Assembly (NCBI GenBank): GCA_023227985.1
Contig: JALOCB010000003.1
Coordinates: 5,260 to 69,259, forward strand
DNA length: 64,000 nucleotides
Source: Candidatus Omnitrophota bacterium
GTDB taxonomy: Bacteria; Omnitrophota; Gorgyraeia; Gygaellales; Profunditerraquicolaceae
Direction: 5' to 3'
Part shown: one piece after another, positions 4,926-12,698 of the stretch
Position numbering within the stretch: position 1 is the first letter of the stretch
How the letters are laid out: each line of letters starts with the position of its first letter
Notes under the pieces: model-generated
Seen by the model: the letters and a program-made list of their open reading frames with translations, nothing else
The model's database searches: none
Told to the model about the DNA's origin: nothing
Program-made: the position numbers and the translations under genes

Positions 4926-5156
4926 ATGTTCGTAAGGTTATCCCAAAACAACCTGTTCAGGAAGATCGTCGGCATTCTTATTCTTTTACAATTTTCAGCC
5001 GGTTTTGCCGTGATTAGGGGTTATGCTGCTCCCGGAAATTTGCGGCCTGCCGCCGTCAAACAGGATGGTTCCCGGTCCGGGACTATCCAGAATTCGCTTG
5101 ACGCGGCCAGCCTGGATAAGGTTATAAAAACCCCGGTCATTCATAAGGACGGCGGT
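4926..5156 (+). other. Shared N-terminal leader, copy 1 (basic N-terminus, hydrophobic stretch, RGYAAPGNLRPAAVK, then KDGG)
   Basis: Position-by-position alignment with the N-terminus of ORF 12779..17302. Confidence 0.75.
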
Positions 5157-8100
5157 ATAACCGGCCAGGATGTTTTTAAGAATATCCTTGGCGAATACCG
5201 TGTTTCCTCCACGATAAACAATCTCGCTTTCGGGACGTTCGTCCAGGGGCAGATCGACCTTAGTTCGGTTCAGAACCGGGAAGCGCTGGTCAATAATTTC
5301 GGGGAGATTAAGAGCAAAGATCGTTTTTTTACCCTTGAATACGCGGGAATTCCGCTTGCCCTGGTCAAGAAGGCCGAAACCGGAGAAATTACCGTCAAGA
5401 AAGTAGTCGAAGACATTGCTTCGATCCCGCTCAACATCCTTTCCGACAATGCCGAAAAGCTCAAAACCGAAGGTGTTACTTCCTCGGATATCCTGGTCCG
5501 CGATTTTCTTATCCTTGAAAAAAGGTCGCGTATCGACATCACTCAGTGCATGACCGTAGAGTTTGGCGAGCTGCGCGACTACGTATACAATCTGGCTAAA
5601 AATGTCGGCCAGGAAAAGGCACTGGAGATGGCATCGGCGTTTGCGGGTAAGGCTACCGTTGACGAGGCTATGGCGGAAGTCGGCGAGAAAGCTAAGCAGT
5701 TAGGCCGCGACCAAGCGAAGGACACAGGTCTGGCGCTGGCCGGCGGTAAGGGTTTGAGCCTTTCGGTCATGAGCCGCGTGGTTGACGTGCCGCCTGGTTT
5801 GAACGTTACTACTACCGCGTATTTTAAGTTCGTCAAAGATAATAAACAGGTCTGGGAGAAGATCTTTAATGAGCTGCAGACCTTGGATACTATGGATGAC
5901 CAGAAGCGCGACGTTGTCACTTCGGAGATCCGCGATGTCATTAAAAGCGCGCCGATACCCGAAGACATCAAGGCTGAGGTAACAGCAATGTACCACCAGC
6001 TAAGCGTTATCCGTTTTCTTGCCGGTAAACCTTCGCCCGCTCCGGTGGCTGTCCGCTCTTCCGGCACCAAAGAGGATATTCACGTTAAAACCTGGCTGCC
6101 GGTTTCCACCGGTTCCCAGGCCGGCCAGTCGGATACATTCCTTAATGTTAAGGGCGAACGGGATGTCCTGGATAAATTACGCGCCGATTGGGCGTCTTTA
6201 TTTACCGATCGCGCGGTCAGCTACCGTGATGACGCCACCTTCTTGCAGTTCTCTGGAGCCATCGATTTTAACGGTAAGACTTCTCAGGATGTCTATTGGG
6301 GGATCGTGGCGAAGCTTCGGGAATACTCCAAGAAACTGGATAAGCCTGAATATAACGTGTACGCTGACTTAATGAGTAAAGTCACCAGCCCTAACCCTGG
6401 GTCGGTGAGCCTGATGAACGCCATGGAGGAGATCCTGAGACAGGAATCGAATCCGGAGATGTCCAATGCCCTTGCCGTTCTGAAGAAGAAAGCAGAGGAG
6501 GTTGTGCATCCCGAACAGATCGGTATCGACGTTGTGATCATGCAGATGGCTAAGAGTTATCTTGCCGGCGTGCTTTTTACCGTCAATCCGGCGACCAAGA
6601 TGGCCGGTGTGGCCCAGTCGTTATACAAGTCATGGTATATGGGTGATGATTCGCTCGTGTACCGCGACGCGAAGACCGATATTATCCAGGGAACCAGGCC
6701 CATAGTGGTGAGCTTTGATGTGGCCTTCGGCTACGGCGAGAACGTAGTCGGCGGCAAGGTAAACCCGGACAAGTTCATTATGGGCACCTACGACGGCGAG
6801 AGCTGGTTTGTTATCGAGAAAAGCAAAGGCAATAAACTTATTCAGATGAAGGACGTGGAAGAAGTCATCGATCTCCTCAAAGACAAGATATCGGAAAAGG
6901 GCCAGCGGCAGCTCGCTATGACCGTGAAAGACGCGATCGCGTATGATGAGGTCGGCAAGCGGATCAACGGCATTATGGCGACCAAACTCTACGGTATCAA
7001 GTATCTTAAGGCGCTTGAGGGTAAAGAGGAAAGCGATAAAGACAAGAAGGCCCGCGTACAGGCTATCGCCAATGAGATTGCCGACATGGTCAAGAATAAG
7101 GTTTCCGAGGATGAAGTTGTCGCGTTCATCAAGGGTAACTTTGAGGTCGTTAACCGGAAGGGCTATAAAGGCATTCAGGAAATGGCGCTTTCGGGAGTGG
7201 TCAGGGAAGTGTTTGAGAAAGTCCAACAGGCCCAGGCTGAGACCGACCGGGGTATGTTTAAACTCTCAAAGCAGCTCGGCGATATGGGAAAGGCCGATAC
7301 GCTTATCCATATGATCAAGGAGGTTTGGGAGAATAAGGAATTTACTCTTTCCGACCGCCAGGCGATTCTTGACAAACTGAACCTTACCAACCAGGAATTG
7401 CGTAATATGAGTTACCTTATCCGCGCGCTGGTGGATAATAGCTTTACTTCAAATTATGAGACTACTTTAACCCACCAGGATACCTTTACTATGACCGATG
7501 ATCAGGCCCAGTATGTGGCGCGTATGGGTTGGGCGATCACCGAATATTATAAGGATGCCCGAGATATAGAGTATGCCATCGAGATAGATAAAACCGCTTC
7601 TTCCGACAAAGCGGTGAGGCTTTACGTTGTGGACGACCTGGGCAATGTCCAGGGAATGGACAATAATGGCAACCTGGTAACGGTGAAGTCCGAAAAGGAT
7701 AAAGCGCGTATAAAAGAAGCGAAGCTGCGCCTGTATAACGTGCAGGCCCGTCCGTATACCGCGGAATACTTGAAGGTGGATGTAATGCGCGCCCGGACCG
7801 AAGCGGATGAAAAGTGGCTTGAGGAGAATTCTCCTAAAGCGATTGCCAGCGGGACTAAGGGAGAGAACGCGACGCAGGGTTATGTGCTGGTGTTCGATCC
7901 TAACAAAGACGTTGCCTGGCACGCGGACCAGATCCGTCGTTTGAAAGCCGGAGATTTTACTGCGGAGGAAAAAGCCCAGATCATGGCTATGGGGTTTAAT
8001 CCCGAAGAGTATGGTTCAGGCAAAGAAAAGCAATTGTCGGTTATTCTTTATCTGCTTGAAGCTGACCCGAATCATGATCCGATCATGCGCCTGGTTGATT

Positions 8101-11100
8101 CGGTTGTTACTATCCGCGGCGGCGATACCTGCCACGCGGCTATCTTTTGCCGTGAACAAGGGATCCCTGCGGTCACCGGCGCGGGCAAGGTTATACTCAA
8201 CGGCCAATTGCTTAAGACCGGTGACGCGGTTACCGTTGATGCTAATAACGGGAATATTTACGAAATGCCCGCTGATGCCGGAGCGCGCATTCCGATCAAC
8301 TACGTGAAATTCAAGATTAAACCGTATGGCATCCCCGGCGACGACGACAATATGCCGTATCCGGGCATCGGCCAGATCATCGCCGCGGCAAGTGCCGCTC
8401 AGCAGAACTCGCCTATTATGCTTGCGGTTGACGCGGTCGGTAACTCGCTGACCCGCGCCGAGTTCAAAGGCGAAGAGATCGGTATCAACGTTTACGCCGG
8501 CTATGGCCATTATCTTTTACAGCAGATCAAGGCCGGAAAAATAAAGGAGCCAGTGAGGGTGCGTGTCCAGGAATTGATCCAGGGCAAGGTTCCCGGCGCA
8601 AAGAGGTTCGTGGACAATATTGAAAATGTTATGGCAGGCGCTTTTGCCAAGGATCCCGCCGCGCGTTCGGCATATCGCGACATTATGGGTAAGGATTTCA
8701 ATAAGGCGGATAGCCTGCAATTGCTGGAGTTTTTCGATTTGAAGAGCGACATTGAGCTGTATGGATTGGATGCGCTTAAACTGGTAAAACAGCAGGTTGA
8801 TATTCTTGATCTCGTTCCCCGGCTTCCGGAGAATATGTATCAGACGCTTGAATATCTTTATGGCGCCACTCAGCGCAGGCTCAACTATGATTATAATATT
8901 ATCGCCGATCTTCAGAACCATCCGTGGATACTGAAAGAAGTCGATTCTAAACTCGCGGAAAAGGGTTACGCGACGTTCAAGGAATACATCACTAACGAAT
9001 TCCTGTATTTTTACAATTTGATGGGTTTTACCATTGCGCCCGATCAGACCGCCAAGAACAGGGCTTACGATTTCGCCCAGGATAAGATCCGCGGCATGCC
9101 CGGTTCCGAGGTTTTTTCCTGGCCCGGAGTCAATCCGTTGGTCGGTTTGCGCGGTACGTCGTTGGAGATCGAGGCCTTTGACGAAGATTTCGGCGGCAAT
9201 CAGCTGGTATTGGATTTTCTTTTTGATTCCGTGATCCAGGCGCACCAGAATACCGGTAACCAAGCCTGGTTTTATGTGTTTGTCCGTTCTTCCCGGGAGT
9301 TAGAGACCCTGGATAAGATCATTGAGCACAAGGCTAAGCAGACCGGGAAGCTTCCGAAAGAGATCGGGATCATGATCGAAGTTCCCAGTGCCGCTTTGGT
9401 GGCTGATGAGCTTGCTGTTAAGATGTCCGAGATGGAGAAAAAATATAAGAAGTATGGCGTTGAGCATACTTTCTTTTCCTTCGGCACTAACGACTATTCG
9501 CATCTTGCTGGTATGGGTGACCGTGAAGACCCGCGAATGAAACTCAAGATTATGGATCCCGCAGCGATCGAAGCGATCGGCGAGATGAAAGCAGCGGGGT
9601 ATTATTATGATGATGCTGCTAAAGTGCTTCCGTTGATTGATGAAGGCGCTGATGTTATGCAGCAGCTTATGGAAACAGTGGTTGCTGCGGCTAATGGTTC
9701 AAGCGTGGCTACCTCGCTTTGCGGCGAGGCGATCACCGCCCTGGTTAACCGCGGGGATTATGAGACCGCAGGCAAGATAATGGCGCTTCTGGATTCTTTC
9801 GGCGTGAGCATGATGAAAGTCCGCCTCGCAGCTTCAATGACGCGCGTGGACACCATGGCGGCTACCAAAGGGATCACCATTCCGGAAGCCGGACGTTCGA
9901 TCCTGTTCGATTTGTCTGCCGGCGAGGTGAAACAGAAAAAGGGCGTCATCAAGGGCGAGATAATATTCGTTGATAATGCCGATGATCTCGTCCCGAACGT
10001 CCTTAAAGGCCTTCAGGGTCCGGAGCTGACGAAAAAGAAAGAGATGTTCAAGCTCCAGAGCCTGGAAAACGCCCGTTCGACTATGCGTACCTTCAATAAG
10101 ATCGTAATTATCACTAAAAACCTCGTTGCTCAGCAGGAGCCTGAGTTGGTCGCGGAGATGGGCAAAGCCGCATTCAGCAAGTTTGTCAATGACGGCCTGC
10201 TTAAAGATATCGGTAATGGGCAGTATGTCTGGACGAATCTGGGTGTAAAGACGGAGAAGTTCAACCAGGAATTGACAATTCAAGGTTTCTCTGAAAAAGA
10301 ACGTAAAGCTATTGAAGGTTTGTGGCAGAAGGCCTGGGATAACAGCATTGAAGGGCTTGAGCGCCGCGGAATTGATTGGGATGATCTACAATATGCCAAG
10401 GCTATAATCGTTGATGCGGACGTTAACCTTGATGGCTGGGATGTGTTCCGCAAGGACAAGAGTATTATTCCGACCCGTATCAAGGCTACGGTCAAAGGTA
10501 TAAGCTCCCGCCGTGCGGAGTTAGAAGGGCAATTGGCAACTATAGATTACGCCGCTAAGAAGGTCTACAAGGATTTTCTCAGCGTGGAAAAGATCGCTGC
10601 CGTCCTGCGCAGTCTTCCTATCCCAGCGGAAAAGCCTATGATAACTACGCAATCGGCTGTCGCGGAGAACGCCAACAGTGTATACCAGAAGATCGGGTAT
10701 CATCCTAAGCTCCTTCTTGCCTATGAGCGGAATGCTGTGAATGAACTTGGAAAGATATTCGAGGAATATGTAGGCAAGCTGGTTGAAGAAGTTGAAAAAG
10801 TTACTCAGGAGACCGACGTTCAGAAACGCGTATGGCTTTTACAGAAACTGCAGAATAAAGTTGGCGGGCTTGCGGAACCGATGATCAAATCGTTTATGAG
10901 CGATGTGCTTTCCGAGGCCATGCGCACAGGTGCGGTAACGCTGCCGGATAACTGGAACAAGAAGCTTTGGGAGGCCTATCGCAGCGACCTGGAAAGCGAG
11001 ATCAGTAAGATCCTTAACGGAAAGACGGTTGAGCAGTATTTTATCGCGCAGTTCAGCGAACAGATGAAGGAAGTGCTCTCCGCCAACAAAGGGGCATTGG

Positions 11101-12698
11101 TTGTCCATCTTTTGGGAAGCCTCAACTGTGTTGATTTCTTTAATATGAAAGGCGGTTTCCTGGTTGAACAGGTCAATCCCAACCCTGATTACGGCATTCT
11201 TGGAGCGGCGCGCGCAATAGGGGATATGTGGGAGATAAACCGCATGGAATTGTCCGCTTTTAAGGCGGTATGGGATAATCTGCCGGTTGACCAGCGCGGT
11301 AATTTTGGCCTGCAGATCACCAATCTCAAAGGCACCCAGTCCGGCGCGGTGGTGATCGGCTGGCGTAATATTCTGAAACAAACCGGTATTATCCCGGGGC
11401 AAGACGGTTTGCAGGTTGGCGTCAATATCGTCACTCCGGCGGATAGCATCGCTGCGGATAAGTATTTTGAGTACTTTAATACGCTCGGAAGCGGGTTAAG
11501 TTTTATCTCATATGATGCGTTGAAGCTTGGCGCTGCCTGGGCCGGCGTGGATATTTTTTGGAAGGAATGGAGGAGGCTGGCTAAGGAAGATGAGTTGTTG
11601 AGGTTCGGCGTCATGACCGGCTGGATGGCGGAAGCCAAGGCTCTGAGGTTCGGCGGCAAAGTCCTTTCCTTTGATATTTCTGACGAAGCCAAACAGACTG
11701 ACGGCGGCGCTGAGGTTGTGCCTTACCGGGTAGTGGTGGAGAATCTCTTCCGGGGGATCATTAAGAAATATGATGCTTTGGATAACGGCCAAGCTCTTTC
11801 TCTCGAAAAAGAAGAGTTGGAGGCAATACTCTGGATCTTGAATTCTTCTCCTTTTGAGAATATGTCAAGCCCGTTTGCCGCGATCAAGAGTATGAAGAAT
11901 ATCAGGAATGTGATCGAAAGGCTCAGCGATGACCAAAAGAAGGCCCTAAGTGTACTTTCACAGGGCTTGGTTTTTGTCAATCACGGGCTGGATAAAAAGG
12001 TGGCGGCATTGCTCGTAGACAAGAAGTTGCTCGACACCGCATATGAATCCGACACGGCGGTATATAAAGGGTTGAACAGCGGTTTTGACAGCTTCGCCAA
12101 TGCCTTGAAAGAGGTTAAGAATGCCGAGGGCGCTTTAGTGGTTAGCGCAAATGCTGTGTTGAATAACGCCGGAACGCTGAGAGTCCTGAGAGAAATAAAA
12201 GAAACCGGGCTGACCTTGGAAATAATCGTCCGGGCTGATACGGAAGATCAGGTGAATAAGCTGATTGCCCTTCGGGCAGACGAAGTCGCGACTATCCAGG
12301 CCAAGCGGCTGTCAGTTGTGCTCAGCGGCTTGAAGAACGCGGGTATAACCGATGGCAAGATAGTGGTGATTAAAGGCAAAGAAGAAGTAAAAGACGCGGT
12401 AGAAGCCGGCGTAAAGGTCGTAGAGATCTCCATGCCTAAAACAGAGGAGTCCAGTATCAACTCCATGGCCTTAGTTGCGGCAAAAGCGGTAATCATAGTG
12501 TTAAATGGTGAAGAAACGGTTGCCGCGCAATACCGGGAAATGGCGGTAAAATACGCCGCAGATAACAGCGTAACCTCTGAAGAATTGGATGATCTGCAGG
12601 ACCTGACCAGCCAGATCTCGGAGATACCCATGGCCAAGGTCAGCGAAGAAGTCGCTAAGGCGCAGGCCACTTATGAGGAGACTATAAGCAAGATATAA
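4926..12698 (+). CDS. Giant fusion protein 2: leader + PEP-utilising dikinase (PPDK/PpsA family) with large insertions + degenerate duplicate of its His and TIM-barrel domains + shared C-terminal module
   Basis: 2590-codon ORF with GGAGGG 4 nt upstream of the ATG. Motifs: LAGGKGLSLSVM, VAVRSSGTKEDI, GSQAGQSDTFLNV, IRGGDTCHAAIFCREQGIPAVTG (His codon 8133-8135), FFSFGTNDYSHL, SLCGEA. Confidence 0.85.
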   Translation: MFVRLSQNNLFRKIVGILILLQFSAGFAVIRGYAAPGNLRPAAVKQDGSRSGTIQNSLDAASLDKVIKTPVIHKDGGITGQDVFKNILGEYRVSSTINNLAFGTFVQGQIDLSSVQNREALVNNFGEIKSKDRFFTLEYAGIPLALVKKAETGEITVKKVVEDIASIPLNILSDNAEKLKTEGVTSSDILVRDFLILEKRSRIDITQCMTVEFGELRDYVYNLAKNVGQEKALEMASAFAGKATVDEAMAEVGEKAKQLGRDQAKDTGLALAGGKGLSLSVMSRVVDVPPGLNVTTTAYFKFVKDNKQVWEKIFNELQTLDTMDDQKRDVVTSEIRDVIKSAPIPEDIKAEVTAMYHQLSVIRFLAGKPSPAPVAVRSSGTKEDIHVKTWLPVSTGSQAGQSDTFLNVKGERDVLDKLRADWASLFTDRAVSYRDDATFLQFSGAIDFNGKTSQDVYWGIVAKLREYSKKLDKPEYNVYADLMSKVTSPNPGSVSLMNAMEEILRQESNPEMSNALAVLKKKAEEVVHPEQIGIDVVIMQMAKSYLAGVLFTVNPATKMAGVAQSLYKSWYMGDDSLVYRDAKTDIIQGTRPIVVSFDVAFGYGENVVGGKVNPDKFIMGTYDGESWFVIEKSKGNKLIQMKDVEEVIDLLKDKISEKGQRQLAMTVKDAIAYDEVGKRINGIMATKLYGIKYLKALEGKEESDKDKKARVQAIANEIADMVKNKVSEDEVVAFIKGNFEVVNRKGYKGIQEMALSGVVREVFEKVQQAQAETDRGMFKLSKQLGDMGKADTLIHMIKEVWENKEFTLSDRQAILDKLNLTNQELRNMSYLIRALVDNSFTSNYETTLTHQDTFTMTDDQAQYVARMGWAITEYYKDARDIEYAIEIDKTASSDKAVRLYVVDDLGNVQGMDNNGNLVTVKSEKDKARIKEAKLRLYNVQARPYTAEYLKVDVMRARTEADEKWLEENSPKAIASGTKGENATQGYVLVFDPNKDVAWHADQIRRLKAGDFTAEEKAQIMAMGFNPEEYGSGKEKQLSVILYLLEADPNHDPIMRLVDSVVTIRGGDTCHAAIFCREQGIPAVTGAGKVILNGQLLKTGDAVTVDANNGNIYEMPADAGARIPINYVKFKIKPYGIPGDDDNMPYPGIGQIIAAASAAQQNSPIMLAVDAVGNSLTRAEFKGEEIGINVYAGYGHYLLQQIKAGKIKEPVRVRVQELIQGKVPGAKRFVDNIENVMAGAFAKDPAARSAYRDIMGKDFNKADSLQLLEFFDLKSDIELYGLDALKLVKQQVDILDLVPRLPENMYQTLEYLYGATQRRLNYDYNIIADLQNHPWILKEVDSKLAEKGYATFKEYITNEFLYFYNLMGFTIAPDQTAKNRAYDFAQDKIRGMPGSEVFSWPGVNPLVGLRGTSLEIEAFDEDFGGNQLVLDFLFDSVIQAHQNTGNQAWFYVFVRSSRELETLDKIIEHKAKQTGKLPKEIGIMIEVPSAALVADELAVKMSEMEKKYKKYGVEHTFFSFGTNDYSHLAGMGDREDPRMKLKIMDPAAIEAIGEMKAAGYYYDDAAKVLPLIDEGADVMQQLMETVVAAANGSSVATSLCGEAITALVNRGDYETAGKIMALLDSFGVSMMKVRLAASMTRVDTMAATKGITIPEAGRSILFDLSAGEVKQKKGVIKGEIIFVDNADDLVPNVLKGLQGPELTKKKEMFKLQSLENARSTMRTFNKIVIITKNLVAQQEPELVAEMGKAAFSKFVNDGLLKDIGNGQYVWTNLGVKTEKFNQELTIQGFSEKERKAIEGLWQKAWDNSIEGLERRGIDWDDLQYAKAIIVDADVNLDGWDVFRKDKSIIPTRIKATVKGISSRRAELEGQLATIDYAAKKVYKDFLSVEKIAAVLRSLPIPAEKPMITTQSAVAENANSVYQKIGYHPKLLLAYERNAVNELGKIFEEYVGKLVEEVEKVTQETDVQKRVWLLQKLQNKVGGLAEPMIKSFMSDVLSEAMRTGAVTLPDNWNKKLWEAYRSDLESEISKILNGKTVEQYFIAQFSEQMKEVLSANKGALVVHLLGSLNCVDFFNMKGGFLVEQVNPNPDYGILGAARAIGDMWEINRMELSAFKAVWDNLPVDQRGNFGLQITNLKGTQSGAVVIGWRNILKQTGIIPGQDGLQVGVNIVTPADSIAADKYFEYFNTLGSGLSFISYDALKLGAAWAGVDIFWKEWRRLAKEDELLRFGVMTGWMAEAKALRFGGKVLSFDISDEAKQTDGGAEVVPYRVVVENLFRGIIKKYDALDNGQALSLEKEELEAILWILNSSPFENMSSPFAAIKSMKNIRNVIERLSDDQKKALSVLSQGLVFVNHGLDKKVAALLVDKKLLDTAYESDTAVYKGLNSGFDSFANALKEVKNAEGALVVSANAVLNNAGTLRVLREIKETGLTLEIIVRADTEDQVNKLIALRADEVATIQAKRLSVVLSGLKNAGITDGKIVVIKGKEEVKDAVEAGVKVVEISMPKTEESSINSMALVAAKAVIIVLNGEETVAAQYREMAVKYAADNSVTSEELDDLQDLTSQISEIPMAKVSEEVAKAQATYEETISKI
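5688..6845 (+). other. Domain: dikinase N-terminal ATP-grasp (nucleotide-binding) region
   Basis: GGKGLSLS..VPPGLNVTT, VRSSGTKED, QAGQSDTFLNVKG, DRAVSYR, IDVVIMQM..AGVLFTVNP. Confidence 0.75.
7833..8270 (+). other. Domain: phosphohistidine swivel domain
   Basis: GTKGENATQGYVLVF ... ILYLLEADPNHDPIM ... TIRGGDTCHAAIFCREQGIPAVTGAG ... GDAVTVDANNGNIY. Confidence 0.8.
8343..9845 (+). other. Domain: PEP/pyruvate-binding TIM barrel
   Basis: NPLVGLRGTS, GIMIEVPSAAL, FFSFGTNDYSHL, SLCGEA. Confidence 0.75.
9918..11675 (+). other. Degenerate duplicate of the swivel and TIM-barrel domains; catalytic His and GTND motif lost
   Basis: GVIKGEIIFVDNADDL ... AKAIIVDADVNLDGWDVF ... GQLATIDYAAKKVY mirrors the swivel-domain layout without the His. 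EQVNPNPDYGILGAARAI, LQVGVNIVTPADSIAAD and LSFISYDALKLG mirror NPxLGxRG, MIEVPSAAL and FSxGTNDL. Confidence 0.5.
12078..12695 (+). other. Shared C-terminal module, copy 2
   Basis: EGALVVSANAVLNNAGTL..LEIIVRAD..ATIQ..GITDGKIVVIKGK...DLTSQISEIPMAKVSEEVAKAQATYEETISKI aligns with copy 1. Confidence 0.8.

Follow-up and report, generated by a model that had tools for sequence, protein, structure and literature searches.

A conserved copy of the swivel and PEP-binding barrel domains that lacks the catalytic residues follows the dikinase of a giant Omnitrophota polyprotein

The ORF2 gene (positions 4926 to 12698, forward strand) encodes a 2590-residue glycolytic enzyme of an uncultured Omnitrophota bacterium. 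It carries, behind a dikinase that appears intact, a further pair of domains, a swivel-like one (S2) and a PEP-binding barrel (B2), in which the catalytic residues have been replaced. We read this region, residues ~1672 to 2250, as an old duplicate, formed within the gene, of the swivel and PEP-binding TIM barrel of a PEP synthase (PpsA)-type enzyme, and we see about an even chance that it serves the dikinase as a structural partner without catalysis of its own. The whole 64,000-nucleotide stretch of DNA is referred to as the window, and the parts of ORF2 mapped below lie on its forward strand; ORF2 is called as the same gene in the source contig. From N- to C-terminus, ORF2 consists of a hydrophobic helix with an NLRP motif, the PpsA-type dikinase, the inactive swivel and barrel duplicate, a module X, and a C-terminal module.

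Residues 260 to 1660 apparently form an intact PpsA-type dikinase. Pfam matches all of its parts, namely the ATP-grasp (PF01326), the swivel (PF00391), and the barrel (PF02896), and PEP synthases in the PDB are matched at E 2e-43. The NCBIfam models NF005057 (E 1e-82) and TIGR01418 (E 1e-77) are matched as well, both below their equivalog cut-offs. By its sequence, the enzyme resembles PpsA and not PPDK. The active phosphohistidine swivel (S1, positions 7923 to 8300, residues 1000 to 1125; Pfam PF00391, E 2e-14) contains the phospho-acceptor motif GGDTCH with His1070 (codon 8133 to 8135), a histidine present in 19 of 19 homologues. The active PEP-binding barrel (B1, positions 8301 to 9905, residues 1126 to 1660; Pfam PF02896) follows, with an insertion of ~130 amino acids inside it and a catalytic set consisting of R1177, R1409, R1454, E1485, N1522/D1523, R1533, and C1599. 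The columns of three Arg, the Glu, and the Asn/Asp are conserved in 20 to 21 of 21 active barrels. In PEP-binding barrels, the Arg, Glu, Asn-Asp, and Cys residues bind Mg-PEP or pyruvate and protonate the enolate. The active motifs start at residues 1065 (GGDTCHAAI), 1403 (NPLVGLRG), 1483 (MIEVPSAAL), 1517 (FSFGTNDYS), and 1597 (SLCGE, which holds C1599 and was traced in the ORF2 sequence only), all of them upstream of the duplicate region.

B2 (positions 10638 to 11675, residues ~1905 to 2250) is connected to these enzymes by several comparisons. As a single sequence, it retrieves the PEP synthase 2OLS from the PDB with phmmer at E 3e-5, and a profile of 23 sequences matches 8A8E (E 1e-21), 2OLS (2e-21), and 9DAE (1e-16), along with the C-terminal domain of Enzyme I (EI) at 6e-4. 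The NCBIfam PEP synthase model TIGR01418 is reached at E 3.8e-11, far below its cut-off, and hhalign aligns B2 with B1 over 228 columns at E 2.5e-21. The resemblance to the barrel thereby far exceeds chance. Other searches do not register it: the Pfam models PF02896 and PF00391 give no match to S2–B2, Pfam searches with the duplicate region alone and with the C-terminal 1082 residues return nothing at E <= 10 except a faint TrkA_N match, and blastp of the duplicate region against ORF1, ORF3, and the remainder of ORF2 yields no significant match to the active domains. The predicted structure of B2 adopts a beta/alpha barrel fold and can be superposed on solved members of the PEP-binding domain family. 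DSSP assigns six strands to the model (residues 1908–1915, 2059–2062, 2127–2131, 2164–2167, 2193–2195, and 2245–2249), with a long helical segment between strands 1 and 2 (positions 10737 to 11084, residues ~1938 to 2053; DSSP of the model) that is the least conserved part of B2, at 23 to 49% identity to orthologues. An eighth beta-alpha unit was not detected in B2; the B1 alignment stops after GTND..DR, and the model ended at residue 2270. At the place of the 'CGE' strand B2 has KVLSF, beyond which lies a linker modelled with low confidence. Both the helical insertion after strand 1 and the undetected last beta-alpha unit distinguish B2 from PpsA. The two-domain model of S2 and B2 reaches a pTM of only 0.66.

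S2 (positions 9939 to 10604, residues ~1672 to 1893) was delineated by hhalign against S1, an AF2 model, and Foldseek. Aligned with a profile of 19 active swivel domains, it scores a probability of 91% and E 8.9e-7 over 64 columns, while cross-domain controls remain at E 0.12 to 0.45. Column shuffles of the S2–S1 comparison gave scores of at most 13.9 in 59 of 60 runs, compared to 43.1 for the true alignment; the single outlier, with a score of 133 over 14 columns at the HMM end, is an impossible value and was treated as a software artefact. Modelled on its own, S2 has a pLDDT of 90 and a pTM of 0.82, with predicted strands at residues 1674–1682, 1725–1729, 1826–1830, 1852–1856, 1870–1874, and 1879–1882 in the order found in the swivel family. 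The first S2 strand and the last B2 strand fit the boundaries claimed in the preliminary description of this DNA, residues 1665 to 2250. Foldseek places N-terminal domains of Enzyme I (1ZYM, 2EZB, 2KX9) at the top, followed by MccF, LeuD, and AF0055, all as weak matches (E 0.01 to 0.1, ~1e-2 for Enzyme I; TM ~0.25); we take these matches to share the SCOP c.8 fold. The Enzyme I domain is a swivelling alpha/beta domain with an inserted helical subdomain. S2 likewise holds a helical or winged insertion (positions 10137 to 10394, residues ~1738 to 1823; defined by alignment, phmmer, and secondary structure), although it lacks an equivalent of His189 and no resemblance between its inserted subdomain and the HPr-binding subdomain can be detected. 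The insertion is missing in the alignment from the compact S2 of P0009, P0011, P0012, P0018, P0019, P0021, and P0030, and is partly repeated upstream in P0007 (phmmer match to residues 2091–2145). The S2 region is colinear with PpsA, and the swivel part of the match in the PDB profile search is not significant alone. As a whole, the evidence for S2, one profile-profile score and weak fold matches to a predicted structure, is weaker than that for B2 and is consistent with a swivel origin.

The four degenerate motifs by which the region was originally recognised are located where they had been placed, AKAIIVDADVNLDGWDVF at residue 1824 (nucleotide 10395), EQVNPNPDYGILGAARAI at 2081 (11166), VGVNIVTPADSIAAD at 2164 (11415), and LSFISYDALKLG at 2191 (11496). 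The underlying proposal, an active dikinase followed by a swivel and barrel duplicate without the His, Arg, and Cys set, is supported by sequence, profiles, predicted structure, and orthologues, and the Glu and the Asn-Asp pair are lost too. In S2, the loop VDADVNLDGWDVF (positions 10410 to 10448, residues 1829 to 1841) is the counterpart of the GGxTxH phosphohistidine loop in the hhalign pairing, which sets Gly1837 against His1070; none of the 20 aligned S2 copies has a His in this column. In B2, the best-conserved motif, NPNPDYGILGAAR (positions 11175 to 11213, residues 2084 to 2096), has Leu2092 in place of the catalytic Arg of NPxxGxRG and retains the second Arg, R2096. Profile alignments give the replacements Arg1409 to Leu2092, Arg1454 to Gln2138, and Glu1485 to Val2169; in ORF2, the strand-1 Arg site of B2 has no basic residue, and residues 2200 to 2260 contain no Cys. 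LSFISYDALK had been read against GTND: the loss of the Asn-Asp pair stands, whereas the register does not, as two independent profile alignments pair N1522/D1523 with L2199/K2200 and not with Y2196/D2197, the pair being lost in either register. These losses hold across 20 to 26 homologues. The catalytic columns vary and hold no catalytic residues in 26 B2 and 20 S2 copies; in 21 B1 and 19 S1 domains, they show little or no variation. Compared to PpsA (2OLS, 8A8E, 9DAE; TIGR01418), S2–B2 has no ATP-grasp domain preceding it and no phospho-acceptor His, and it is devoid of the PEP- and Mg-binding Arg, Glu, and Asn-Asp and of the proton-donor Cys. Lacking the phospho-carrier His and the residues that hold Mg-PEP or pyruvate and protonate the enolate, the copy would therefore take no part in phosphotransfer.

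A word-indexed protein search returned only two relatives, and HMMER, run in full over 1.84 billion proteins, returned 40 matches. Loci with organism names belong mostly to Omnitrophota MAGs, and the family members are glycolytic enzymes fused in polypeptides of 1500 to 4000 residues; the module marks a small, lineage-restricted family. Identity to four orthologues is 39 to 68% for the S2 and B2 cores and 45 to 79% for the S1 and B1 cores. The degree of conservation is about the same in the dead copy and in the live domains, and the copy is kept under purifying selection. The loops NPNPDYG and KGTQSG on the catalytic face are among the best-conserved parts of B2. Antisense ORFs in the duplicate region are without any support and are located within the conserved coding frame. 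The lost catalytic residues, together with the failure of the Pfam models to recognise the region, could be taken to indicate a functionless relic of duplication that is drifting to loss. We regard this as extremely improbable, and the conservation data already contradict it: S2 and the B2 core retain identities near those of the active domains in deep orthologues, no stops or frameshifts occur across the region in the window, both main branches of the family have retained the module after one old duplication, and AF2 folds it compactly and with confidence.

In a neighbour-joining tree, midpoint-rooted and without bootstrap support, all B2 domains form one clade and all B1 domains the other, with mirrored branching, and a single ancient duplication is therefore indicated. 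A different origin, in which the C-terminal two thirds of a separate PpsA paralogue were joined to the dikinase gene and then inactivated, would agree with B2 of ORF2 being closer to canonical short PpsA barrels (P0035, P0037, 2OLS) than to the insertion-rich B1. Divergence of B1 in the giant forms accounts for this asymmetry, however, and in the tree B2 branches as the sister of all B1 domains of that protein family, so that we consider a fusion unlikely. Furthermore, P0002, seemingly a free-standing gene for the module, was rejected as such, as the three JGI contigs that carry it are frameshifted at an A6 run in the S2 coding sequence. A fusion would in any case alter the history of the module and not its present function.

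The position of the module is fixed. In every full-length homologue it directly follows the active barrel, regardless of what comes next, be it the C-terminal module (P0003), TIM, aldolase, and enolase (P0006), membrane segments and glucan enzymes (P0004), or almost nothing (P0005). The shorter relatives P0015, P0023, P0026, P0028, P0029, P0032, P0033, and P0036 keep B2 without S2, and the dead domains therefore need not act as a pair. S2–B2 combines the features that define a pseudoenzyme, namely an active homologue, the absence of the catalytic residues, and conservation among orthologues. As the catalytic residues were lost and the copy has yet been conserved since an ancient duplication, we infer that a pseudoenzyme with a structural or regulatory function is its most likely nature.

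Subunits of PpsA, PPDK, and Enzyme I contact one another through their PEP-binding barrels. PpsA functions as a dimer whose interface is conserved, and in the archaeal 24-mer PpsA the PEP-binding domains make up a stable core (bioRxiv 10.1101/2022.08.11.503304). Among solved structures, the 24-mers of P. furiosus (8A8E) and S. marinus (9DAE), with 24 chains each, come closest to the live ORF2 enzyme as well as to B2. In these assemblies the scaffold barrel is the catalytic barrel, whereas ORF2 has an extra, inactive barrel with a hypothesised oligomeric role. We postulate that the dead barrel, capped by its own dead swivel, could supply the subunit contact in cis, forming a pseudo-dimer. Equally, S2–B2 might offer a scaffold surface that places the dikinase inside a multi-enzyme assembly of glycolytic polyproteins. 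The conserved catalytic-face loops of B2 would fit the docking of S2 as well as the binding of a ligand.

Ligand binding is central to the main rival of a structural partner, an allosteric sensor in which the dead barrel, alone or together with the dead swivel, would have kept the ability to bind a metabolite (such as PEP, pyruvate, phosphate, or another glycolytic intermediate) and would thereby tune the dikinase. We hold this possible, at clearly lower probability than a structural role. Loops at the barrel mouth are strongly conserved, with E2081 invariant and NPNPDYG, R2096 of GAAR, and KGTQSG well conserved; the module always adjoins the active domains and equals the catalytic domains in conservation. 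There is also precedent in hexokinase I and phosphofructokinase-1 (PFK-1), where inactive halves were turned into regulatory sites. However, every residue known to hold Mg-PEP is replaced, in several cases by hydrophobics (Leu2092, Val2169) and with no Cys left, the replaced columns differ among orthologues, which is unexpected for a defined ligand site, and the conserved residues are mostly those kept for the fold in active PpsA too. The N-terminal half of hexokinase I and the C-terminal half of eukaryotic PFK-1 are inactive, regulatory halves of tandem-duplicated glycolytic enzymes. Like ORF2, they comprise a glycolytic enzyme duplicated within one polypeptide, one copy being catalytic and the other dead and conserved. 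They differ in fold and family, and ORF2 duplicated only two of its three domains; ligand binding by their dead halves was shown experimentally, whereas that by S2–B2 is hypothetical.

B2 might instead have acquired another catalytic activity with new residues, such as the phosphoglycerate mutase step, for which no domain was detected in ORF1, ORF2, or ORF3. Although B2 has conserved polar motifs of its own, we find such a new function very unlikely. Profile and fold searches link the region to PpsA, PPDK, and EI only, and profile searches assign it to no different, catalytically competent family. The metal ligands are gone, the eighth barrel unit is apparently missing, no new constellation of conserved His, Cys, Asp, or Glu is evident, and the mutase may be encoded elsewhere in the genome.

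Further modules lie downstream of the structural partner proposed here. Module X (positions 11733 to 12032, residues 2270 to 2369) aligns by blastp with residues 859 to 954 of ORF1 (23% identity, E 1e-4). The C-terminal module of ~217 residues (positions 12045 to 12695) occurs in ORF1 too, at 46% identity, and in 13 homologues; it was the only element that blastp of the duplicate region against ORF1 and ORF3 found to be shared. It ends at the last residue of the protein in 12 of its carriers and 6 to 11 residues before the end in P0026, P0030, P0033, and P0010, while P0015 is cut off. Searches of PDB sequences, Pfam, and NCBIfam give no match to the C-terminal module, and ORF3 is not picked up by its profile. 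The N-terminal hydrophobic helix with the NLRP motif is common to the giant polyproteins ORF1, ORF2, and ORF3. A truncated aldolase copy in ORF1, cited in the preliminary description as a parallel to the dead dikinase domains, is not supported as one: in ORF1 (1673 residues in the source contig), a single C-terminal half of a class II aldolase precedes a single N-terminal half. This order is real, because only 86 residues of ORF1 fall outside the window, and a mere cut at the window edge was rejected on the same grounds. The arrangement looks like a circular permutation and not like a degenerate partial duplicate.

Pseudoenzyme domains that arose by tandem duplication are well known. Our literature searches turned up none described for the PpsA/PPDK/Enzyme I family, and on Omnitrophota they yielded nothing specific about fusions of glycolytic enzymes or about pseudoenzymes of PEP synthase. 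West-Roberts et al. (2023) mention giant proteins of Omnitrophota with glycolytic and PPDK domains, though not the S2–B2 duplication. More speculatively, and in our view doubtful, S2–B2 could be a purpose-built control or assembly element in a co-assembly of ORF1, ORF2, and ORF3, where it would sense PEP or pyruvate or nucleate an oligomeric core; if so, the last glycolytic step would be physically coupled to the rest of the pathway. Recognising ~580 residues of ORF2 as an inactive, conserved copy averts their mis-annotation as a second dikinase and yields well-defined domain limits for expression and structural studies. It also offers a concrete, testable way into the question of what holds these giant metabolic polyproteins together or regulates them.

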